From assembly GCA_014728225.1 (NCBI GenBank), contig WJLX01000012.1, positions 591-64,590 on the forward strand: a stretch of DNA of 64,000 bases, written 5' to 3'. The notes below the pieces were generated by a model, which worked only from the letters and a program-made list of their open reading frames with translations, was not told where the DNA came from and searched no databases. The DNA comes from Candidatus Coatesbacteria bacterium. GTDB lineage: Bacteria; RBG-13-66-14. Positions 1-11,567 of the stretch are shown piece by piece (within the stretch, counting starts at the first letter, position 1; the number at the start of each line of letters is the position of its first letter). The translations under genes and the position numbers were made by a program.

Positions 1-502
1 GCCGGGTGCTCCACCACTCGAACCACTTGCTCTCCACCCCGGCGGACTGGCTCATGTAGAGCGGATCGGCGAAGGCCGAGACCGCCACCGGCGGCTCTGT
101 CTCATAGTCGTAGCCCGGGGCGAACTGGGTAGTCAGGGTGGCCTCGGCGAACAGCCGCGCCAGGGGCGAGAGGGCGTAACCGGAGCGGGTGGCGAAGTCG
201 ATGCTGTCCGCCGAGGTGCGGAAGTCCTCGTCGCCCTGCTTGGTCTGGGCGAAGGCCAGGCTGAGTTCGCTGTTCCAGAAGAACTCGCCGGGCTCGTAGT
301 CCAGGGTACCCTCGAGGCCGGAGGTATAGGCCAGGGAGTTCTCGCCGCCGGCGGCCCAGTTGCTGAAGGAGGCCTGGGAGAGACCGGCGCTGAGATGCAG
401 GCTGTAGCTCCAGGGACCGTTCGCTTTCTCGGCGGGCTCTTCCTGGGCGGCCAGGGGGACGACCAGGGCGAGGAGTATCAACAGGCACAGGGTGGAATGC
501 AT
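1..502 (-). CDS. DUF3078-like outer-membrane beta-barrel protein, 5' part; gene continues past window start
   Basis: ATG at 500-502 on the minus strand. Signal peptide MHSTLCLLILLALVVPLAAQ. Motif SFSNWAAGGENSLAY, which I recall as typical of DUF3078. The frame runs open to the window edge, so it is absent from the ORF track. Confidence 0.45.
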   Translation of the reverse strand, partial: MHSTLCLLILLALVVPLAAQEEPAEKANGPWSYSLHLSAGLSQASFSNWAAGGENSLAYTSGLEGTLDYEPGEFFWNSELSLAFAQTKQGDEDFRTSADSIDFATRSGYALSPLARLFAEATLTTQFAPGYDYETEPPVAVSAFADPLYMSQSAGVESKWFEWWSTR

Positions 503-586
503 GGTTTCCTTTCCGTTGTAACGACGGCTGCGCTGCGGGTGATTCGTGATCACGGGACCGCCCCGTAGACCTTCCACCGGTCCGGC

Positions 587-1483
587 TCAACCGAGCGACA
601 GTTCGTAGACGTACATCCAGTTGAAGCCCTCCTCGCCGCGCAGGCCGGCGGCCAGGAAGGTTTTTTCCAACGGCAAAGGCACCGGGGTCCAGAGGTCGGC
701 CCCGGGATGCAGGTGGCGGATCAGCCGTCCCAGGGCCTGGACGAAGGCCGCGTCGAAGGCCGCCGGCTCGCCGCTGACGGCGCTGAGATAGAGGTGATCG
801 GGACGGGGATCGCCGGCGTAGAGCGGCGCCGCGGCGCGCAGGCCCCGCGGTCCCCGCCGGACCAGGATCGGTCGTCCACCCAGGGCTTCCCGCAGGCGCT
901 GCGCCGTGGCCGCGGGCAGCACCCAGCCCCGGGACAACAGTCCGGCGTAGTGCTCGCGACAGCCGGCCAGCAGGAAATCGAGCACCCCGGGCTCGTCGAT
1001 GTCGACGAGGGCCAGATCGTCGGTTCCGGCGGTGACTGCGGCGCGGTTTTCCAATGGTTTTTCCCGAGAGTAAGGATAGCCCGCGAAGGGTAAAACGAGC
1101 ACCTTGCGGAAGCCGCTGCCGGCGGCGAAACCGACGGAACGGTTGCTGTCCGCCGTCGACCAGCGGGCCATACCGTGTCCCAGCCGGTGCAGCTCGGCCA
1201 TGGTGAACTCGTGGAGCCGTCGACCCAGCCCCAGACCCCACTGCTGCGGGTCGACGCGCAGTCCCTCGAGCCACCATTCGTCGTCGGCCAGGCGACGCAC
1301 CCGGCTGACGCCGACCAGGCGGTCCCGCAACTCGGCGACGTAGACGCCGCCTTCGGCGATCCGGCGATCGATGGAGACAACGAGGTAGTCGTGACCCTCC
1401 CAGATGGTGCGGACCATTTGCCGAATCGGCTCGGCGTCGGCCGGCCGGGCGGGACGAAAGCTGAGCTCGTCGAAGTCTGCCAA
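587..1483 (-). CDS. GNAT-family N-acetyltransferase with C-terminal extension
   Basis: The N-terminal ~150 aa carry GNAT-like motifs (VYVAE...VGVSRV...WWLEGLRVDPQQWGLGLGRRL). The 298-aa ORF in this frame supersedes the artefactual 391-aa ORF 102..1277. Confidence 0.55.
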   Translation of the reverse strand: MADFDELSFRPARPADAEPIRQMVRTIWEGHDYLVVSIDRRIAEGGVYVAELRDRLVGVSRVRRLADDEWWLEGLRVDPQQWGLGLGRRLHEFTMAELHRLGHGMARWSTADSNRSVGFAAGSGFRKVLVLPFAGYPYSREKPLENRAAVTAGTDDLALVDIDEPGVLDFLLAGCREHYAGLLSRGWVLPAATAQRLREALGGRPILVRRGPRGLRAAAPLYAGDPRPDHLYLSAVSGEPAAFDAAFVQALGRLIRHLHPGADLWTPVPLPLEKTFLAAGLRGEEGFNWMYVYELSLG

Positions 1484-1558
1484 GGAACCTCCCCTAGCCC
1501 GCGAGCGTTATCCAAATACTAGACAACTATAGCATATCCACGCCCGGACGAGCGGACC

Positions 1559-1587
1559 TGGCAATCCGCCGCTCGACGGTCTATACT
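1559..1587 (+). promoter_or_regulatory. candidate sigma70-like promoter (-35 TGGCAA, 17-nt spacer, -10 TATACT) upstream of TPR gene
   Basis: Hexamers read in the AT-richer divergent spacer between the GNAT and TPR genes. Confidence 0.25.
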
Positions 1588-1620
1588 TGAGCAATCGATA
1601 ACCACCGAGGCGGTGCGGTA

Positions 1621-2127
1621 ATGGAAGACAAACCCCAAGGCCTGGAGCGCGACTTCAACGGTTTGGAGCCTGTGCGCTGCCCGTACTGCGGCCGGCGCTC
1701 CTACCCCACCCGGCCCCAGCCCCGGGTACGCTGCGCCTGGTGCGGTCGCGGGTTCCAGGTCCGCCTCGAGGGCGAGGACCCCTGGTACGAGCAGGCCGTC
1801 AAGGACCTCAATCGCGCCTTGGCCATCAAGACCGACCTCTTCCTGGCCTATCACAACCTCGGCCTGGCCTACAGCGAGATCGGCCAGTACGAGCAGGCGA
1901 TCACCGTCTTCGAGAAGGAACTCAAGCTCAGCCCCGATGACGCCGACACCTATTTTTTACTGGGGATGGCCTACGCCGGGGCGACTACCCAGTACAAGCG
2001 GGCCATCGCCAACCTGGAGCGCTACCTCGAGCTGCGTCCCGAGGCCACGGAGCGGGAGGAGATCCGCCGCCTGATCGCCCGGCTGGCCAAACTGGAGCAG
2101 GAGAACGGCGGCAACGGTCGGCACTGA
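1621..2127 (+). CDS. zinc-ribbon plus TPR-repeat protein
   Basis: CPYCG...CAWCG zinc ribbon at the N-terminus. TPR-like repeats follow (AYHNLGLAYSEIGQYEQAITVFEKELKLSPDDADTYFLLGMAY). Confidence 0.55.
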   Translation: MEDKPQGLERDFNGLEPVRCPYCGRRSYPTRPQPRVRCAWCGRGFQVRLEGEDPWYEQAVKDLNRALAIKTDLFLAYHNLGLAYSEIGQYEQAITVFEKELKLSPDDADTYFLLGMAYAGATTQYKRAIANLERYLELRPEATEREEIRRLIARLAKLEQENGGNGRH

Positions 2128-2237
2128 CCAACCCACTGACCAACCACGGACCAGCGGCGGAAAAAGACGAGCCCCCGGGGGCTCGATTGCTTTTCCGCAG
2201 GATTGATGCTGAACCGTAGTTTAGTCGGAGCGACGCC

Positions 2238-2434
2238 GGCGGAACTTTGAAAAAGGGTTGCGGAACCTAGTCCGCCACACCGCCTTTCCCCGCCGGAACC
2301 GGCACGGTTTTTGCATCTCGGCGACCGTTACGACCGATTGATAACGGTCGGCCTCCGCAAAAACCGTGCCGGTTCCGGCGGGAGTCCTATCAACTCGCGC
2401 TGCGTCGGCGAGGCCTGTTTTTCAAAGTTCCGCC
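2238..2434. repeat. nested palindromic repeat element, copy A (core 2293..2378, ATCTCGGC-first orientation)
   Basis: Core reads CCGGAACCGGCACGGTTTTTGC ... GCAAAAACCGTGCCGGTTCCGG. Inner hairpin GACCGTTA...TAACGGTC. Outer inverted repeat GGCGGAACTTTGAAAAAGG (2238-2256) / CCTGTTTTTCAAAGTTCCGCC (2414-2434). Lies between convergent 3' ends. Confidence 0.8.
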
Positions 2435-2436
2435 GG

Positions 2437-3741
2437 CTAACCGTTTTTGACGGTGATGTTGAAGGTTCGTTCGCCGACCTTGACGCGGACTTTGACCCGT
2501 TCGCTTTCGGGGTTGACGCGAATGTTGAGTCCGTCGGAGTCGCCGTCGACGGAGGCCTGCCAGGTGACCCGGGTGGCGGTGGCTTCGAGGACGCGGTCGT
2601 CCTCGCCGGCGGCGTAGTCGCCGCCCTTTTCGAAGCCGAGTTCGTAGTCGGCCAGCAGGGTGCCCTCGCCCTCGATGATCTCGGCGGAGCCGTCGAAGCC
2701 CTCGAAGGGCGGGTTGTCGTAGCGGTCGAGGTTGCCCCAGCGGATTTTGATGGTTCGGCCGTCGTCGTGAAGCCAGGCGTTGGCGCGGTTGTGATCGCCG
2801 ACGGCGCTGATCAGGATCACCCGTTCGAAGTCGCCGGCGGTGACTCGGACCCGGGCGTCGCCGCCCCGGGGTTCGACGTGGACGTTGAGGCCGTCGCCGT
2901 CGGCGGGGCGAACGGAAGCCTCCCAGCGGACGACGTCGGGGCCGTCTTCGAGGATGCGGTCGTTGGAGCCGCTGGAGTAGGAGCCGTCGCTTTCCCAGGA
3001 GTGGGTGTCGGTGACAGAGAGCTCGGCCCGACCGACGACGACGGTCACCTCGCCGTCGAAGGTTTCGAAGGGTGTGCTGGGGAAGGCATCGAGATTGCCC
3101 CAGCGAATCTTGACGGTCCGGTTGTCGTCGTGGAGCCAGGCGTTGGCGCGGTTGGGTCCGACCTCGCCCTCCTCGGGCGGTCCGCCCATGGTCCAGTTGG
3201 TCACCGAGCGGGTCAGCGAGCGTTCGTGCATTCCGTTGAGATCTACGACGAATTCGCCCAGCCAATCGCCCAGATGCAGGTGAACGATCTCTTCACCGGT
3301 GACCGTAATCCCGAAGGTCAGTCCGTCGGTGTCGTTCTGCGAGCTGGCGCGCCAACTGAGGTAATCGGGGCCTTTGTCGACGACGGCGTCGTCGCCGCCG
3401 GAGTCATAATCGCCGCCGGAGTCCAGCAGCTCATGGTTGATGACCGTGCAGGGGCTTTGCTCGGGGTCGAGGAAGCCGTCGAAATAGTTCAGTCCAACCC
3501 CGGGTCGGTTGTCGAGGTTGCCCCACTCGAGTTCGAAGACCAGCTGGGCGCGCTCGTCGTTGATCTCGCGCCGGGAGACCTGTTCGAGGCGCAGGACGTT
3601 GCCGGCGGAATCGAGTTGCAGGCTGGCGGCTCCCTGGGCGGCGGCGGGTACTCCCGTGGCGGCGTAGAGGGTAACGAGCAGCCAGGCTGGCGGACGGCTT
3701 TTCATCAAGTTCATCATAGTCGATAGCGACAGGCTTGGCAA
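2437..3741 (-). CDS. secreted protein with three tandem ~110-aa 'WGNL' repeat domains of unknown function
   Basis: Signal peptide. Internal repeats carry (L/I)(E/R)WGNLD...FDGF...GGDY..G.DD.V..GPD.V.W.AS...DGL...V.....GD(W/F)..EF. Paralog of the adjacent 3791..4315 gene. Confidence 0.6.
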   Translation of the reverse strand: MPSLSLSTMMNLMKSRPPAWLLVTLYAATGVPAAAQGAASLQLDSAGNVLRLEQVSRREINDERAQLVFELEWGNLDNRPGVGLNYFDGFLDPEQSPCTVINHELLDSGGDYDSGGDDAVVDKGPDYLSWRASSQNDTDGLTFGITVTGEEIVHLHLGDWLGEFVVDLNGMHERSLTRSVTNWTMGGPPEEGEVGPNRANAWLHDDNRTVKIRWGNLDAFPSTPFETFDGEVTVVVGRAELSVTDTHSWESDGSYSSGSNDRILEDGPDVVRWEASVRPADGDGLNVHVEPRGGDARVRVTAGDFERVILISAVGDHNRANAWLHDDGRTIKIRWGNLDRYDNPPFEGFDGSAEIIEGEGTLLADYELGFEKGGDYAAGEDDRVLEATATRVTWQASVDGDSDGLNIRVNPESERVKVRVKVGERTFNITVKNG

Positions 3742-3790
3742 GCTGGAGACCGCGTCTCCTGTTCGTTTCCATCCTCTTGCGGCTCGTTGT

Positions 3791-4315
3791 TCAGGGCGCG
3801 TCGATGGCCGGTCCGTCGGGGTTCCAGACCGAGGTCGATTCCTGCAGGGAGTCTTCGACGAGGTTGCCGGCGGCGATTTTGAACTCGCCGTGCCAATCGC
3901 CGACCTTGATATGGACGACGGTGTCGCGATTGGTGATCACGCGGACGGTTAGGCCGTCGGTCTTGCCGACGGTGCTGGCCCGCCAGCGGACGTAGGCCGG
4001 GCCGTCGTGGGTAACTTTGTCGTCGAGACCGTTCTCGTACTTGCCGCCGTGGTCGAACATCCGCACATCCACCACCCGGCATTCGCCGTGCTCGGGAGCG
4101 ACGAAGCCGTTGAATTTCTGGAAACCGACTCCGTCGACGCCTTCGAGGTTGCCCCATTCCAGGAAGATATTGACGGCGCGGCGTCCGCCTTCGAGTTCGG
4201 CGGTGGCGCGTTGTTCCACTTTGAGCATGTTGCCGCTTTCATCGACCCGGATGGTCATCGCAACGGCGGATACCGCCAGCAGCAGCGTAAAGACGAGTAG
4301 GATTCTGCCACGCAT
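3791..4315 (-). CDS. secreted single-domain paralog of the 'WGNL' repeat protein
   Basis: Start at internal Met (MRGRILLVFTLLLAVSAVA, a signal peptide) preceded by an AGGAGG RBS. It has the same domain signature: LEWGNLEGVDGVGFQKFNGF...WRAS...DGL...GDWHGEF. Confidence 0.6.
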   Translation of the reverse strand: MRGRILLVFTLLLAVSAVAMTIRVDESGNMLKVEQRATAELEGGRRAVNIFLEWGNLEGVDGVGFQKFNGFVAPEHGECRVVDVRMFDHGGKYENGLDDKVTHDGPAYVRWRASTVGKTDGLTVRVITNRDTVVHIKVGDWHGEFKIAAGNLVEDSLQESTSVWNPDGPAIDAP

Positions 4316-4490
4316 CTTTTCCTCCTTGATGGTGAAGGTGGGTTGGAACGACATTAGTAAATTATAGCGGGTGCTGGATTAGTTTGCAGAGGTGTTTGCG
4401 GGGTTTTCGGGCCGGTTTGTCATTTCCGCTCGCGGATCACCGGTCCGGGGTTGCCTGGTAAGCGGAACGCCTTTGCCGTATTGCACCGGG

Positions 4491-4554
4491 CCGTCACATT
4501 TCTTGCACTTGCAACGAACCCTTGGTCGGGTTCGTTGCGCAAGAAATGCGCCGG
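4491..4554. repeat. degenerate relative of the palindromic element (variant K)
   Basis: CACATTTCTTGCACTTGCAACGAACCC ttggtc GGGTTCGTTGCGCAAGAAATGCG. Imperfect hairpin sharing the TTCTTGC / GCAAGAA half-sites. Sits in a ~600-bp spacer. Confidence 0.5.
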
Positions 4555-4933
4555 CCCTCGCTTGTTGCCGGATGGCGGGCGTCCGGCGAGATGCGCGACG
4601 GGCGAGGGGGAGCTCATCGCCCCGGCGGGTATCAGCAGTGTAAGACGTGCTGCTGTGCGGGCGGGTTTATTAGACCCGCCCGCGAACTACCATTGGTAAT
4701 GCCCTGCTGGCGGGCAGACCCTGGCGTGGGCCGCCGTGGATCAGGGTTGGGGGCGGTTCGCCGTTAAGGGGTGACCGGCTGGCTCGCAGAGCCCGCCCGA
4801 CAGGGCTATCGGGTTGCGGCCGGGGCCAGAGGAGTCAGCCCACGCTTCGTCCTGGGTGGTTGATCCGTTCCTTTCTCACCCCGGCCCGTGAACGATCTTC
4901 CTCCCCGGCGGAGAGGGAAACCGATCCGGTGGG

Positions 4934-6766
4934 TCAACGGCTGATCACAAACCGTCGGGTCGCCCCTGAACCTTCTCCCGCCAGTCGGGCGAGGTAGACG
5001 CCCGGTTGGTATTGTTCCACATCGAGGAGGAGGGTGTGACGACCGGGGGTCGCCTCCAGGGTTTCCGTAGTTATCCGGCGGCCGGTGAGATCATAGATAG
5101 TCAGCGTCGCTGAGGCGCAGCCCTCGGGCAGGGTGTAGCTGAGCGTCAGGGCGTCGGCGGCCGGGCTGGGATAGGGCTCGTGAAGGGTCAGCCGCTGCGT
5201 CTGCGGTGGCGCGACGACGGCCTCCGTCGGGCCGTAGCGCTCGACCGCGCCCGCGTCCCCGGTGATCTCCAGCCAGTAGGAGTAAGCCTCGCCGGGGGTG
5301 ACGCCCCGGTCCAGCCAGCGGGTGGTTCGCCCGTCGAGGGCACCCGAGACGGCGATGGGATTCTCCCGGCCCCGCAGGACGCGAAGGCCGGCGGGGGGCT
5401 CGCCCTCGACGGCCCAGTCGACCAGGACGCCGTCCCCGCCGGGCGCCGCGCTCAGCTCGACCGCGCCGACGGGGAAGTCCTCGAGGGGGTCGGCCAGGGC
5501 GGCGGTGTAACCTACCGCGGCGCGCAGGACGTCGGTGCCGAAGGGCCAGTAATCCTCGTAGTTGGCCAGCAGGTCCGTGGTGGAATGGTAATGCGGGTTC
5601 TCGTCGTAATCGTTCTCGATCAGCAACAGGGCGGGGTAGCCGTTGTCCCAGAACGGCGAGTGGTCGCTCCACTCGAAGGCGGGGTCGTAGCTGGTGGCGA
5701 CGTTCAGGTCCGGGACGTACTCGGCGGCGAAGGTCTCCAGCCCCGTGGCCAGATCGCTGGATTGGCCGTCGTAGGGCACCCAGACGGTGTAGCCCTCCAG
5801 GCCGTCCCACAACACCATGTCGACGTTGATCACGCCCTGGATGTCGTCGCCGGCGGCGTAGGCCTGGTCGGCGTAGTAGGTGCTGCCGCACAGCCCCTGC
5901 TCCTCGGCGCCGAAGCAGATGTAGCGCAGGGTGGCGTCGAATTCATACTGGGAGAGGACGCGGGCGGCCTCGAGTACGGCGGCGGCGCCGCTGCCGTTGT
6001 CGTCGGCCCCGGGGGCGTCGTCCTCGCTGTTCCAGGGATAACCCGCCGTCGAGTCCAGGTGGCCGCAGATGATGTAGATCTCCTCCGGCGTGACCTGCCC
6101 CGGCTGCTCGGCGATGACGTTGTAGCAGGTGAAGGTGCTGCCGTACCAGGGGTCGGCGGTGAAGGTCTGAATCTCTCCGTCCAGGCCCAAACCGTCCAGA
6201 TAGTCCTCGGCGTAGAGGCAGGACTGGTAATACTGATCGTGCCGGGCGCTGCGGGTGACGAAGTCCTCCAGCTCCTGGATGACGTCCTTGATCTCGTCCT
6301 CGCTGACGGCGTCGACGATCTCGCTCAACTCCTGGTCGTCGGACCACGCCGGTGACGGACCGCCCGAGCTTTCGACCATGCGCGCCGGCGAGGCCGTTCG
6401 CAGGGGCAGGACGCCGTGGAGACCCTCGAGGTTGAAGCCCGGCGGCAGCTCGCCGTTCCAGCGCACCAGATAGAGCTGGTCCCGCCGCCAGACGACCACG
6501 CCCAGTTCGGCCGCTTTGCCCACCGCGGCCGGATCGTTGACCAGAACACGCAGGTACTCCCGGGTCTCGGCGTCACGGTCCAGGACGACGGCGTCGGGCG
6601 TCGCCTCGCCGAGGCAGACCGCGTAGTCGGCGCCCCGAAGAACGATCCGGGCGTCCGCGGGCGGAACGTCGCCCTCGTACAGCACCAGATCGGCGGCGCC
6701 GCCAGCGACGGCGAGCAACAGCAGAAACAACAAAGAAATCAAGGAAATCGCTCGGCGGATCGACAT
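4934..6766 (-). CDS. secreted M28-family aminopeptidase with PA domain and C-terminal T9SS-type sorting (Por secretion CTD) domain
   Basis: Start taken at the internal Met (MSIRRAISLISLLFLLLLAVA, a signal peptide). The upstream in-frame extension would overlap repeat copy B. M28 motifs: GHLDS, ADDNGSGAAAVLE, EEQGLCGS. C-terminal segment TLTIYDLTGRRITTETLEATPGRHTLLLDVEQYQPGVYLARL. Confidence 0.75.
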   Translation of the reverse strand: MSIRRAISLISLLFLLLLAVAGGAADLVLYEGDVPPADARIVLRGADYAVCLGEATPDAVVLDRDAETREYLRVLVNDPAAVGKAAELGVVVWRRDQLYLVRWNGELPPGFNLEGLHGVLPLRTASPARMVESSGGPSPAWSDDQELSEIVDAVSEDEIKDVIQELEDFVTRSARHDQYYQSCLYAEDYLDGLGLDGEIQTFTADPWYGSTFTCYNVIAEQPGQVTPEEIYIICGHLDSTAGYPWNSEDDAPGADDNGSGAAAVLEAARVLSQYEFDATLRYICFGAEEQGLCGSTYYADQAYAAGDDIQGVINVDMVLWDGLEGYTVWVPYDGQSSDLATGLETFAAEYVPDLNVATSYDPAFEWSDHSPFWDNGYPALLLIENDYDENPHYHSTTDLLANYEDYWPFGTDVLRAAVGYTAALADPLEDFPVGAVELSAAPGGDGVLVDWAVEGEPPAGLRVLRGRENPIAVSGALDGRTTRWLDRGVTPGEAYSYWLEITGDAGAVERYGPTEAVVAPPQTQRLTLHEPYPSPAADALTLSYTLPEGCASATLTIYDLTGRRITTETLEATPGRHTLLLDVEQYQPGVYLARLAGEGSGATRRFVISR

Positions 6767-6820
6767 ACGAACTCCATCGCGTTGGTGGTCGAAGGGCGGG
6801 CGGTTGATACCGGAGCAGCG

Positions 6821-7009
6821 CCCGAGAGACCGTTGACGAAACGGCTGCGCGGTCGGGCTCGTCGCGGTCGGAACCGGCACGGTTTTTGCGGAGGCCGACC
6901 GTTAACGTCGGCCGTAACGGTCGCCGAGATGCAAAAACCGTGCCGGTTCCGACCGCCGTGGCGTTGTCGGGTGTCGGCGCGGCGGGCCTTGCGTCAACGG
7001 TCTCTCGGG
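6821..7009. repeat. nested palindromic repeat element, copy B (core 6866..6954, GGAGGC-first orientation)
   Basis: Same 22-bp arms as copy A. Inner hairpin GACCGTTAACG...TAACGGTC. Outer inverted repeat CCCGAGAGACCGTTGACG (6821-6838) / CGTCAACGGTCTCTCGGG (6992-7009). Confidence 0.8.
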
Positions 7010-7026
7010 CGGCGGAGCGGGACGGC

Positions 7027-8286
7027 TCACTCGACCTGGTAGAGTTCGAGGTTGACGAAGCTGGCGAAGCCGCGGCGGACCTTGAGGTTGGTCATCGGCT
7101 GCAGGGTGCGCAGCTCGGTGGGGTCTTCCTCGCCGAGGAGGGCCCGGGCTTCCAGGAGGTAGTAGGTTCCGGGCGCCACCCCGACGAGCTGGAACTCGCC
7201 GATGTAGTTGCTGGTGGTGGTCTTGTAGGGGCGGCTCTCCTCGTATTCCTCCCGGGTGCGGTAGACCGCCACCGTGGCTCCCGGGACGGCGGTGCCCCGG
7301 ATCAGCACCCGACCGACGACGACGCCGGTGGTCTGGGGGTCCATCTCGATGGTGTCGGAGCGGCCGTAGCGTCCGCCGTCGAGGGTGGGGATGCGCAGGG
7401 AGTTGAAGATCGAGATCAATTCGCGCAGGTGGGCGTGGAACTCGTCGGCGGGCAGGCTGGCCTGCATGGTGTAGCCGACGCTGTTGCGCAGCAGGTAGCA
7501 GACGACGTGCCTGGTCGTTACGGTGGTTGCGCTGACGGGATCGGTGACGCCGTCATCGTAGACGGCCAGGTAGGGTTCGCCGCTGGCCAGTTCCCGCAGC
7601 AGTTCGGCCATCTCGTCCAGCTCTTCCTGATCCGCGGCGCTTTCAGCCTCGGCGGCGCGGACCTCCGGGGTCTTGTAGGGCACGCCCGTGGTCTGCTGGA
7701 GGGCTATCAGCCCTTCCATCACCGTCATATCCTCGATGATCACCTCACCGGCGTCGGGGTCGTCGTCGGCGGGTTCGTCGCTAGGCGTTTCCGGCGCGGG
7801 TGTCGGCTGCTCGCTCTCGGGGGGCGTTTCCGGGTACGCTTCAGGATCGAGGCCCTCCTCGGGCAGCGCCTCGTCGTCGAGCTCGCCGACGAGGGGTTCG
7901 GCGCTGTATTCGATCGGCCGGGGCAGCAGTTCGGGCTCCCGGCCCTCCCAGGCCTCGATCAGGGCCTGGACGCTGGTTTCGGCGCCGCGAACGCCGTAGC
8001 TGTTGCGGGCCAGCTTGCGATGGTCCGACGGGGTGTCGAGGGAGTCCATCACGTCGACGTAGACGCGGAAGCCGACGCGGCCGTCGGGGCTCTGCAGCAG
8101 GACCAGGGCGGCGCCGACGTTCTTTTCCACGCTCCAGCCCGCCGGGGCGGTGACCTGGAAGCCGTAGTCGGTGTTTGAGTAGGTCTGGCCGGTGATCGAG
8201 GTGCGGGCCGTCGCCGGGGCGAGGATACCCCAGGCCAGCAGCGCGGCGGCGGTCAGGCTCCAGAACGGTCGGCGCAGGTGTTTCAT
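7027..8286 (-). CDS. secreted hypothetical protein with acidic Pro/Glu-rich linker and C-terminal carboxypeptidase-regulatory-like beta-sandwich
   Basis: Internal Met start (MKHLRRPFWSLTAAALLAWGILAPATA, signal peptide). Low-complexity PETPPESEQPTPAPETPSDEPADDD. C-terminal VVGRVLIRGTAVPGATVAVY. Confidence 0.5.
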   Translation of the reverse strand: MKHLRRPFWSLTAAALLAWGILAPATARTSITGQTYSNTDYGFQVTAPAGWSVEKNVGAALVLLQSPDGRVGFRVYVDVMDSLDTPSDHRKLARNSYGVRGAETSVQALIEAWEGREPELLPRPIEYSAEPLVGELDDEALPEEGLDPEAYPETPPESEQPTPAPETPSDEPADDDPDAGEVIIEDMTVMEGLIALQQTTGVPYKTPEVRAAEAESAADQEELDEMAELLRELASGEPYLAVYDDGVTDPVSATTVTTRHVVCYLLRNSVGYTMQASLPADEFHAHLRELISIFNSLRIPTLDGGRYGRSDTIEMDPQTTGVVVGRVLIRGTAVPGATVAVYRTREEYEESRPYKTTTSNYIGEFQLVGVAPGTYYLLEARALLGEEDPTELRTLQPMTNLKVRRGFASFVNLELYQVE

Positions 8287-8429
8287 CGCGTCCATTATAG
8301 CACCCCGGACGCCCGGGTCAATGCCGTCGTTGATGCCCCTTGCAGTACCGGCCTCCAATCGGCTATGCTATTAGCCGTCCAGGGTCGATTCTACCGCGAG
8401 TCCCCGGGAGGGCGACTTTGCCGCTGTTC

Positions 8430-11400
8430 ATGTTCACCGACATCCAGGGTTCGACCCGGCTGTGGGAGAAGCACGGCCGGGCGATGGCCGAGATTCTCGA
8501 GCGCCACGACCGCCTGGTGGAGCAGACCGTCACCGAGTTCGGCGGGCGGATCCTCAAGCATCTGGGTGACGGCTTCTTTATCATCTTCAACGAAGGCGGC
8601 GATCCCCTGGGCTGCGCCCTGAGCCTGCAGCGGCGGATCGGCGCGGCGGACTGGAAACCCGTCGGCGATCTGCGGGTGCGCACGGCCCTGCACGCCGGCG
8701 AAGCCGAGCGCCTCGGCGAGGACTATTTCGGTCCGGTGATCAACCGTACGGCCCGGCTCTGCGACGCCGGCTGGGGCGGTCAGATCCTGCTCTCCCCCAG
8801 CGCCGCCGACTACGGACCCCTGCCCGAAGGGGCCGAACTGGTCGAGCTGGGCTCGCACCAGTTGCGCGACCTGGACCGGCCCCAGGAGATCCTGGCCCTC
8901 GACCACCCCGAGCTCCCCCTGCGCAGCTTTCCCGAGCTGCGCACGATGAGCGCCCGACCCAACAACCTGCCGCCCCAGTCGACCCCCTTCGTCGGCCGCG
9001 TCGAGGAGCGCCACGAACTGCACCGGCTCCTCGATAAGGAAGGCGCCCGCCTGCTGACGATCACCGGCCCCGGCGGGATGGGCAAGACCCGTCTGGCCCT
9101 CCAGGTGGCCGCCGAGCGGCTCGACCGCTACGACGACGGCGTCTACTTCGTCCCCCTGGCGCCGCTGGCCGACGTCGAGCAACTGGTCCCCGCCGTCGCC
9201 GAAGCTTTGTCGTACAGCTTTTCGCCCGGCTCGGAGCCCCAGGAGCAGCTGCTCAACTATCTCGAGGGCAAGCGCCTGCTGCTGGTCCTCGACAACTTCG
9301 AGCACCTGACTGCCGGGGTCGAGCTGGTGGCCGATATCAACGAGCGCGCCCCGTCGATTAACGTGCTGGCCACGAGCCGGACCCGCCTCAACCTGCGGGG
9401 CGAGCAGCTCTACACCATCGCCGGCCTGCAATTCCCCCGGCACTGGGAGCCCGCGCCCGAGGATCATTACAGCGCCCTGCACCTGTTCCTGGAGAGCGCC
9501 CGGCGTCTGGAGCCCGACTTCGTCATCACCCCGGACAACGTGCGCCAGGTTATCCGCGTCTGCAGCCTGGTCGGTGGGATGCCCTTGGGGATCGAGCTGG
9601 CGGCCAGTTGGGTGCGCACCCTGGAGCCCGCCGAGATCGTCGAGGAACTCGAGAGCGGGTTGGACTTCCTCGACACCGAGCTGCGCGATCTGCCCGAACG
9701 CCACCGCAGCCTCCTCGGGGTGGTCGACTACTCCTGGCGCCTGCTGAGCGAAGGGGAGCGGACCGTCTTCAGCTCGCTGGCCGTCTTCCGCGGCGGTTGC
9801 GACCGCGCCGCCGCCAAGGCCGTCCTCGGCGTCGGCCCCCGGGAGCTGATGAAGCTGGTGGATAAGTCCCTGCTGGAACGGGGCAGCGACAAACGCTATC
9901 GGATGCACGAAGTGGTGCGCGTCTTCGCCGAGGAGAAACTGGCGGCGGAACCCGAGCGACGGGAGAAGCTGCGCCTGGCCCATGTCGAGTACTTCAACGA
10001 GTTCCTGCAGCGGCGGCGCAAGGGTCTCAGCCGGGAAGAGGGCGCCGCTCTGCAGGAGTGCCGCCGCGAAGCCGACAATCTCAACGCCGCCTACGGTTAC
10101 GCCCTGAACACCGGCGATCGCGAGCTGCTCGCCGATTATCTCGAGGTCTTCTCCGCCTACATCAACGCGACCTACCGCCACCGCGAGCACCTGGAGCTCA
10201 GTCGCCGGGGCCTGGAGGTCCTGCCGCGACGGGACGATCGCGCCGACGGTCTGCTGCTGGCCGCCCAGGCCTCCTCCCTGGCCTCCCTGGGGCGCTACAA
10301 GGAGTCGATCGATTACGCCCGGCGCTCCTACGAGATCTTCGAGAAACTCGACGACGTCAGCAACGCCTACTACGTCATCTACCGCCTCGGCGCGGCCTAC
10401 TTCCGCACCTTTCAGATCGACAAGGCCCGCGAATACTTCATCAAGGCCCTCGAACTGGCTCGACGGCTGGACAGGCCCATGAGTCTGGCCAGCGCGCTGC
10501 TGGCCATCGGCGATATCGAGAACGCCAGCGGCAACCTGCACCAGGGGCTCGAGTACTGCAACGAGGCTCTGGAGATCAACCGCCGCGAGGGCCGCCGGAC
10601 CGGCGTGGTCAACTGCCTGATCACCGTGGCCGACATCTACAACCACCTGGGCGACCTGCGCACCGCCTACGAGCATCACGCCGAGGCCGTGCGCATCGCC
10701 GACGAAATCACCTACCTCCACGGCAGCGCCCTGGGGCGTTCGGCCCTCAGCGAGGTCGGTAACAAATTGCACCGGGGGCGCGTCAACCTCATCACGGCGC
10801 GGCGCTCCCTGGAGTTGTTCCAGGAGATCGGCGATGTCTACTGGCAGAACAACGCCCGCAGCGAGCTGGGCATCGCGCTGACCGACGAGGGCCAATACGA
10901 CGAGGGTCGCAGAATGCTCGATTCGGCGTTGAGCAGCTATCACGAAGAACGCGTCTCTCCGCTGATCGCCTACGTCGAGAGGTATCTGGGTCGACTCGAA
11001 CTCTTCAACGACGATCCCCACGCCGCCCTCGCCCACTTCACCCGCAGCCTCGAGCATTACTCGCTGAAAGAGTACTGGAGGCCCAGGCTGCAGGTGGAAC
11101 TCTACCAGGTCTGGGCCCGTCTCGCCGCCGGAGACAACCGGCGAACGCTCGCCGAGCTGGAGAGTATCGCCGCCGATTTCCACCGCTGCCTGAGCGGCGA
11201 AACCGATGAAAGCGGCGGCGTCATCGGGATCGGCCTGCACACCCTGCGGGGGCTGTCGCTGCGCTCGAGCGGCGCGGACCCGGCTGCAGAGCTTGACGAG
11301 GCCCGCCGCCTGCAGATCGCCGAGGAGAACGGTGAAGTCGACGATTGCGGCCTGCTGCTGGGGCTGGAGTTGTCGAGGGTCCTGCCCATGGACCCCGCCG

Positions 11401-11567
11401 CCCGGCTGATCGCCCGGCTGGCCGACGACGAGCGCACTCCGCGCTATTTCGCCCTCCAAGCCGCCGAGCTGCGCCGGGAACGCGGCATGCCCGTCGTCAA
11501 GCTCGAAGCCCCCGAGGACTACAACCGGGGCTACCAGGCGCTGCTGGCGGAGCTCGCCCGGCCCTGA
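8430..11567 (+). CDS. class III adenylate/guanylate cyclase fused to STAND AAA ATPase and TPR repeats
   Basis: Start at MFTDIQGSTRLWEKHG. Cyclase motifs: FTDIQGST, GDGFF, GPVINRTARL. Walker A ITGPGGMGKTRL; Walker B LLLVLDNFEHL. C-terminal TPR-like repeats. The antisense 1080-aa ORF 8391..11633 is an artefact. Confidence 0.7.
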   Translation: MFTDIQGSTRLWEKHGRAMAEILERHDRLVEQTVTEFGGRILKHLGDGFFIIFNEGGDPLGCALSLQRRIGAADWKPVGDLRVRTALHAGEAERLGEDYFGPVINRTARLCDAGWGGQILLSPSAADYGPLPEGAELVELGSHQLRDLDRPQEILALDHPELPLRSFPELRTMSARPNNLPPQSTPFVGRVEERHELHRLLDKEGARLLTITGPGGMGKTRLALQVAAERLDRYDDGVYFVPLAPLADVEQLVPAVAEALSYSFSPGSEPQEQLLNYLEGKRLLLVLDNFEHLTAGVELVADINERAPSINVLATSRTRLNLRGEQLYTIAGLQFPRHWEPAPEDHYSALHLFLESARRLEPDFVITPDNVRQVIRVCSLVGGMPLGIELAASWVRTLEPAEIVEELESGLDFLDTELRDLPERHRSLLGVVDYSWRLLSEGERTVFSSLAVFRGGCDRAAAKAVLGVGPRELMKLVDKSLLERGSDKRYRMHEVVRVFAEEKLAAEPERREKLRLAHVEYFNEFLQRRRKGLSREEGAALQECRREADNLNAAYGYALNTGDRELLADYLEVFSAYINATYRHREHLELSRRGLEVLPRRDDRADGLLLAAQASSLASLGRYKESIDYARRSYEIFEKLDDVSNAYYVIYRLGAAYFRTFQIDKAREYFIKALELARRLDRPMSLASALLAIGDIENASGNLHQGLEYCNEALEINRREGRRTGVVNCLITVADIYNHLGDLRTAYEHHAEAVRIADEITYLHGSALGRSALSEVGNKLHRGRVNLITARRSLELFQEIGDVYWQNNARSELGIALTDEGQYDEGRRMLDSALSSYHEERVSPLIAYVERYLGRLELFNDDPHAALAHFTRSLEHYSLKEYWRPRLQVELYQVWARLAAGDNRRTLAELESIAADFHRCLSGETDESGGVIGIGLHTLRGLSLRSSGADPAAELDEARRLQIAEENGEVDDCGLLLGLELSRVLPMDPAARLIARLADDERTPRYFALQAAELRRERGMPVVKLEAPEDYNRGYQALLAELARP

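Follow-up and report, generated by a model that had tools for sequence, protein, structure and literature searches.

A pair of adjacent genes in a Candidatus Coatesbacteria genome raises two questions: what is the domain that they repeat, and what might their exported products do? The genes, here called B and A, lie on the minus strand at positions 3791–4315 and 2437–3741, respectively, of a 64,000-nucleotide stretch (the window; positions 591–64,590 of contig WJLX01000012.1, assembly GCA_014728225.1). Gene B encodes a predicted exported protein of 174 amino acids (aa) with one copy of the domain, which we call WGNL after its signature residues, and gene A a predicted exported protein with three copies, 434 aa long when read from the TTG at 3741. 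We regard it as well supported that WGNL, a domain of unknown function in exported proteins, is a genuine new family. It joins the non-catalytic beta-sandwich modules already familiar from the cell surface or periplasm and is not a new kind of system. To our knowledge, Coatesbacteria is a candidate phylum with no cultured member, and the family offers a first handle on its exported proteins.

One domain repeated in two paralogues

The WGNL signature is found at residues 73, 214 and 335 of the open reading frame (ORF) of 434 aa and once in B. When B was aligned to A by BLASTP, three separate matches were returned, with E values of 2e-40 (repeat 1, 39% identity), 2e-15 (repeat 2) and 7e-15 (repeat 3). 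At the sequence level the repeat relationship is thus far beyond chance, and both the matches and the signature positions agree with an earlier, sequence-only reading of the locus, which had counted three copies in the larger protein and one in its neighbour. The motif string given in that reading also agrees with an alignment of ten units. Its unit length of ∼110 aa needs refining, as two types of unit can be distinguished. The domain of B, matched by the family hidden Markov model (HMM) at 3854–4258 (E=5.6e-60), and repeat 1 of A (3220–3624, minus strand; E=2.6e-51, 39–40% identity to B) are of an N-terminal type of ∼135 aa, which has an extra ‘D..GN.L.VEQ’ hairpin (‘GN.L.LEQ’ in repeat 1) and a conserved C-terminal ‘E.SL..S...W’ tail (‘ERSL..S...W’ in repeat 1). 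Repeat 2 (2803–3153, minus strand; E=5.1e-43) and repeat 3 (2440–2790, minus strand; E=2.3e-43) are of an internal type of ∼115 aa that begins ‘NRANAW’. The HMM scan found no further copy in the window beyond A and B.

The ORF of gene B can be read as 3791–4354 or 3791–4315 (minus strand). A start at the ATG at 4315 is supported because a Shine–Dalgarno (SD) sequence, AAGGAGG (about 4321–4327), lies 6 nt upstream, and because the resulting 174-aa product is 100% identical to a deposited hypothetical protein (P0003) of a Candidatus Coatesbacteria metagenome-assembled genome (MAG). For gene A, the TTG at 3741 merely gives the longest ORF. To judge from sequence comparison, the start is more probably the ATG at 3717, giving a product of 426 aa, since a 95%-identical homologue (P0001) has been called from the equivalent methionine. 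The ATG–ATG pair at this start is kept in a related strain (contig L015, from another sample), and there is a third conserved ATG at 3705.

The L015 contig carries the same tandem pair at 94% DNA identity, with B of 174 aa and A of 423 aa, and so allows the coding sequences to be compared directly. Of the codons of gene A, 42 differ synonymously and 19 non-synonymously between the two strains, and the nucleotide changes fall at third positions (48) far more often than at first (12) or second (8) positions. The reading frame of A is therefore under purifying selection. Gene B shows 8 synonymous and 15 non-synonymous differences, with ∼9 of the replacements, by hand count, falling within the signal peptide.

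Both proteins begin with Sec-type signal-peptide-like sequences (MRGRILLVFTLLLAVSAVA followed by MT, and M(M)NLMKSRPPAWLLVTLYAATGVPAAAQGA followed by AS), that of B covering residues 1–19. Judged by eye and with a hydrophobicity heuristic, each has n-, h- and c-regions and an AXA-like cleavage site, in keeping with the signal peptides proposed for both from sequence. The mature proteins are acidic, with isoelectric points of 4.4 and 5.1; B is a 17-kDa protein.

A sparse superfamily of exported proteins

Neither A nor B matched any Pfam-A or NCBIfam model even at E≤10; PHROGs gave only matches with E>0.08, and PADLOC gave none. No family recurred when 60 domain segments were compared with Pfam at E≤5. 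Sequence searches of the PDB with protein A, with a 10-unit profile and with a 60-sequence superfamily profile returned marginal matches only, among them the S-layer (surface-layer) protein EA1 (E=0.043) and Mtr2 (E=0.035). One apparently stronger match, to de novo designed immunoglobulin (Ig) domains (E=2e-6), was set aside: it covered only the C-terminal hairpin and is probably compositional. The domain is thus as unassignable as it had appeared from sequence, and a check for a confident Pfam or CDD match returned none.

A word-indexed search of 5.8 billion proteins recovered only five close relatives, to which a profile query added one 235-aa protein with 26% identity. Searched exhaustively with a profile, 1.84 billion cluster representatives yielded 137 proteins at E≤1e-3, 19 of them at E≤1e-10. 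The domain is therefore novel in the sense of being unassigned, as had been claimed, but it is not limited to these genes, being spread across a sparse superfamily in which there are at least 137 clusters at 50% identity. The superfamily pattern reads WG.[LI]D ... [WF]DG ... G ... FE.GG.Y..G.DD ... V.W.S.T ... DG[LIV].V, and W35, G36, G51, G58, D80, W92, D101 and G102 are near-invariant. Export appears to be general. We checked 141 proteins, comprising the 137 profile matches and close homologues of A and B, and of the 135 that begin with methionine, 124 have a signal-peptide-like N-terminus, six of these also with a lipobox. The source names of the relatives are all ‘hypothetical protein’ or absent, and searches of the literature on TTHA1873 (the best structural match, below), Coatesbacteria and WGNL turned up nothing useful on function.

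Almost no distant relative carries a Pfam domain. Among 103 relatives scanned, CarboxypepD_reg was matched in nine, SLH in five, PEGA in four and EF-hand in two, with single cases of SpaA and Kazal; no family was matched by more than nine of them. One relative matched fn3_3, a non-catalytic sandwich. The SLH domains, at the C-terminus of five distant relatives, are cell-wall anchors. The prealbumin-like domains CarboxypepD_reg, PEGA and SpaA (PF13620, PF08308 and PF17802) resemble the WG domain in being non-catalytic modules of exported proteins, but they do not match A or B, and in the ten long relatives checked such accessory stretches occupy parts of the protein outside the WG domain. The sequence-only reading had proposed looking for co-occurrence with a type IX secretion system (T9SS) C-terminal sorting domain or with glycoside hydrolases. 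None was seen: no glycoside hydrolase, other catalytic Pfam domain or T9SS sorting domain (Por_Secre_tail, TIGR04183/TIGR04131 type) was found in A, in B or in the 103 relatives.

Two of the loci that encode CarboxypepD_reg together with the WG domain (L003, 4572–14225, and L013, 3247–14257) share a neighbourhood in which PPDK_N and Lactamase_B are separated by one gene from the WG protein, which is followed by an unannotated protein of ∼870 aa and an HTH_HVO_0163-type regulator. The L013 neighbourhood also contains a weak PMT_2-like glycosyltransferase match, and that of L003 a thiolase beside a DUF35-type gene. By gene content the two loci look archaeal, and the same content suggests a surface-glycoprotein locus.

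Predicted structure

An AlphaFold2 model of mature B, made with a 60-sequence alignment, is of high confidence (mean predicted local distance difference test score (pLDDT) 94.6, predicted template-modelling score (pTM) 0.88). It comprises 12 beta strands and a single helical turn, with the last five residues disordered. The predicted all-beta architecture is most simply read as a sandwich, in line with the beta-sandwich fold suggested from sequence. With its clear motif, a deep enough alignment and this high-confidence model, the family is suitable for curation as a new domain.

The fold is not closely matched by known structures. The best Foldseek match in the PDB was the hypothetical protein TTHA1873 of Thermus thermophilus (E=1e-4, template-modelling (TM) score 0.41, root-mean-square deviation (rmsd) 9.4 Å), followed by leukocidins, the alpha-macroglobulin receptor-binding domain, cohesins and the CLIPPER adhesin domain, all with TM<0.5; a viral structure library held nothing better. 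TTHA1873 (PDB 7wwn, 7wrk and 7wwo) is of similar size (∼159 residues), but across its structures the TM score is 0.36–0.41, the rmsd 9–10 Å and the identity 12–13%, with no sequence-profile match, so common ancestry is not established. The cohesins and the alpha-macroglobulin domain are likewise single protein-binding domains, of 130–175 residues, and are matched with a Foldseek probability of up to 0.98. They differ from WGNL in that the TM scores are 0.26–0.39 with no sequence similarity, and in that WGNL has no dockerin partners or cellulosome context. A pore-forming toxin reading was rejected, as the leukocidin alignments have an rmsd of 17–22 Å over more columns than there are residues in the query.

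The model of the three-domain protein is less certain (pLDDT 77, pTM 0.41) and shows three separate beta domains joined by low-confidence or disordered linkers. It matches only generic tandem sandwich arrays from adhesins and S-layer proteins, with TM≤0.25; Als, MSCRAMM, PrgB and SbsC are its top Foldseek matches. These tandem Ig-like or beta-sandwich surface proteins are, like A and B, exported, non-catalytic and built of one to several linked modules. In contrast, the TM scores are 0.12–0.25, there is no sequence similarity, A and B lack LPXTG, SLH or other anchors, and the single-domain model never exceeded TM 0.5 against these folds.

Copy number and repeat history in Coatesbacteria

A scan for the close family in one genome per GTDB species gave seven loci, all from Candidatus Coatesbacteria or unclassified MAGs. 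Scanning all loci with the HMM revealed a one-domain form (L010, L011, L012 and B of the window), a two-domain form (L002, L006, L007, L008 and L009) and a three-domain form (A of the window and L001). The copy number varies at what is a syntenic locus, consisting of the WGNL gene, a tetratricopeptide repeat (TPR) gene and a GNAT gene. On the 3′ side the same TPR gene (62–66% identity), on the opposite strand, is present in L007, L009 and L002, and it is followed by the GNAT gene (44–46% identity) in L007 and L009. Upstream, L009 and L002 have an ABC-F ATPase and L007 an ORF of similar size, as opposed to an M28 peptidase in the window.

A tree of the individual units splits the N-terminal from the internal types. 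B falls with the one-domain proteins, to which it is 63% identical, and with the first repeat of the two-domain proteins (60%), and repeats 1, 2 and 3 of A each pair with the same-numbered repeat of L001, which means that the three-domain architecture predates the split of the two organisms. Repeat 3 of A is also placed with domain 2 of the two-domain Coatesbacteria proteins. In L001, a relative from a microbial mat, the three-domain gene is closely preceded by a 79-aa ORF (1365–1604) with a signal peptide and fragments of the motif (ENGNRIE..., FDNGDRYRRGADDKV). To judge from its sequence, this ORF may be a B-like paralogue that has been truncated or frameshifted. With such an ORF ahead of the L001 gene, the B+A tandem is seen more than once, though not throughout the phylum.

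A possible role at the cell envelope

What, then, might the two proteins do? In our estimate it is an evenly balanced proposition that B and A are non-catalytic extracytoplasmic binding or structural modules at the cell envelope. The proposal draws on the export signals, the all-beta fold, the lack of a catalytic partner, the surface modules of the relatives, the variation in copy number and the acidity of the mature proteins. B and A would be exported by the Sec pathway as paralogues carrying one and three copies, respectively, of an all-beta domain. They are probably co-transcribed, because only 49–73 nt lie between them, with no terminator tail on the transcribed strand. The domain would then act as a binding or structural unit in the periplasm, at the outer surface or in a surface layer, and the copy number (1, 2 or 3) would determine its valency or how far it extends, as it does in other surface proteins made of tandem beta-sandwiches. 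The putative functional site is the long and conserved acidic, glycine-rich loop between strands 6 and 7 (F-D/E-x-G-G-x-Y-x-x-G-x-D-D), of which the near-invariant Asp-Gly at the start of strand 10 (D101-G102) is probably also a part. A metal, for example Ca2+, or a ligand may bind there. We infer, rather than observe, the final location of the two proteins, their binding or structural role and the functional loop.

Several observations weigh against this proposal. Without an SLH domain, lipobox or T9SS tail, A and B could be simply soluble periplasmic proteins. Their neighbourhoods (TPR, GNAT, ABC-F or M28 peptidase) contain no conserved operon partner and offer no functional link. The structural matches, all with TM<0.5 and high rmsd, mean that the resemblance of the model to adhesins and cohesins is generic, and the metal site, which may exist, is proposed from sequence conservation alone.

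The sequence-only reading had favoured a carbohydrate- or surface-binding module, and it is the surface-binding or structural half of that guess that has fared better. A lectin-like sandwich, or one like a carbohydrate-binding module (CBM), could bind exopolysaccharide or mat glycans, with multiple copies giving more avidity, and a role of this kind would suit exported proteins of bacteria whose sample sources point to polysaccharide-rich microbial mats, among them the hypersaline mats behind ERZ922774 and SRR12689834. The predicted all-beta fold is compatible with it, and the conserved aromatic residues W35, W92 and Y74 could form a Ca2+-assisted sugar site together with the acidic loop; CAZy CBMs are likewise exported, of beta-sandwich type, and have conserved aromatic and acidic residues. 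However, across the 60 domain sequences there was no match to any Pfam CBM or lectin even at E≤5, and the closest PDB structures are not CBMs. CBMs are usually attached to carbohydrate-active enzymes, but among the 103 relatives we found no glycoside hydrolase, lyase catalytic domain or esterase, and no attachment to a catalytic CAZyme. We consider carbohydrate binding, which nothing specific supports, unlikely; an S-layer-like structural role is about equally plausible. In the latter case B and A would self-associate, perhaps jointly, to form a lattice or sheath at the surface. SLH anchors lie at the end of five distant relatives, and PEGA or CarboxypepD_reg, modules typical of surface-layer proteins, are present in others; there are the weak profile match to EA1 and the weak fold match to SbsC; the mature proteins are acidic; and the pairing of a one-domain with a three-domain paralogue is kept in two strains. 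Against this, A and B have no anchoring domain, the S-layer matches are weak enough to have arisen by chance, and several Coatesbacteria species have, within the DNA examined, only a one- or two-domain gene. We would therefore also call a lattice-forming role improbable, to much the same degree.

Still less probable, in our view, is a soluble periplasmic protein whose function is unrelated to surface binding, such as a metal or Ca2+ buffer, a chaperone, a protease inhibitor or a toxin-related protein. A signal peptide with no anchor or secretion tail would be expected of such a protein, and the conserved Asp/Gly-rich loop would suit a buffer. The Kazal inhibitor domain of one relative and the EF-hands of two could be taken to point the same way, but these are rare accessories outside the domain. 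Leukocidin-type pore-forming toxins are among the Foldseek matches, but with alignments that are not meaningful at the rmsd given above. Nor does the adjacent M28 peptidase with its T9SS tail provide a partner, since in other Coatesbacteria it is not found in synteny with the WGNL genes; a functional link to it was rejected for the same reason.

The binding or structural module at the envelope that we propose has a bolder extension, which we regard as doubtful. Under it, the WGNL or ‘WG...DG...W.S...DG’ domain would define a structurally new extracytoplasmic beta-sandwich superfamily without a Pfam or PDB counterpart, present in bacteria and apparently also in archaea, and the one- and three-domain paralogues of Coatesbacteria would be the main blocks of an undescribed surface layer or adhesive coat. 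Were either the new fold or the role as envelope building blocks to prove true, it would inform how mat-dwelling bacteria build or use their surface.

Intergenic regions and candidate promoters

The spacer between B and A (3742–3790, minus strand) measures 49 nt to the TTG of gene A and 73 nt to the ATG at 3717. It contains a stem-loop with a 6-bp stem at 3745–3759, whose fold energy is unremarkable (z=−0.09) and which has no T-run behind it on the transcribed strand. In L015 (about 645–660) the pairing of this stem is kept through a two-sided change, from GGAGAC/GTCTCC to GGAGGC/GCCTCC, which hints at a functional intercistronic RNA element. A sigma-70-like sequence, TTGCCA-17-TATGAT, with 10 of 12 matches, lies at 3713–3741 (minus strand), overlaps the annotated start of gene A and is also kept in L015. 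Initiation from it near the ATG at 3705 (MKSRPP...) may give gene A its own, possibly leaderless, transcript. A TATAAT-like box 45 nt upstream of B was rejected as a promoter, because it is not conserved in L015 whereas the SD site is.

Upstream of B there is a spacer of 618 bp (4316–4933, minus strand) that holds only short ORFs and no credible gene, together with the SD site and, on the transcribed strand, two stable hairpins. The non-coding gap of ∼600 bp described earlier is real, but its description as a leader is not supported. The spacer is specific to this genome: in L009 and L007, the upstream ABC-F gene or similarly sized ORF ends within about 95 bp of the WGNL gene. A leader, a terminator region of the M28 gene and the remnant of a rearrangement are all candidates for what the spacer represents. 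The first hairpin (4480–4565, minus strand) has a fold energy of −55.8 kcal/mol, compared with −26.3 for shuffled sequences (z=−9.1), and is nested, with 19-nt outer arms around perfect inner arms of 11 nt. The second (4650–4690, z=−5.7) is built on a 13-bp G+C-rich palindrome (4657–4683), ∼250 nt downstream of the M28 stop codon and without a T/U tail, which may serve as a terminator or bind a protein. Each hairpin occurs once in the window. When positions 1–9000 were searched with Rfam, no family was at or near its gathering score in the spacer. Over the whole searched range the only matches were sub-threshold, miRNA-like (microRNA-like) and caused by hairpins, and the ‘MIR814’ match at 4480–4565 reflects nothing but the hairpin there.

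Neighbouring genes

The gene upstream of the spacer (4934–6880, minus strand) codes for an M28 family peptidase, in which Por_Secre_tail, a T9SS C-terminal sorting domain, scores 33.9 bits (cut-off 27). From this tail it would appear that the organism is diderm and secretes proteins through a type IX system. The sequence at the 5′ end of this gene (6859–6964) is palindromic, and Rfam gave sub-threshold miRNA-like matches to its two strands, scoring 35 bits where the gathering score is 79; the region is probably a mere inverted repeat. Further along, on the plus strand, 8340–11567 encodes a protein of 1075 aa in which an adenylate/guanylate cyclase domain is joined to a STAND/NB-ARC-type ATPase and to MalT-like TPR repeats.

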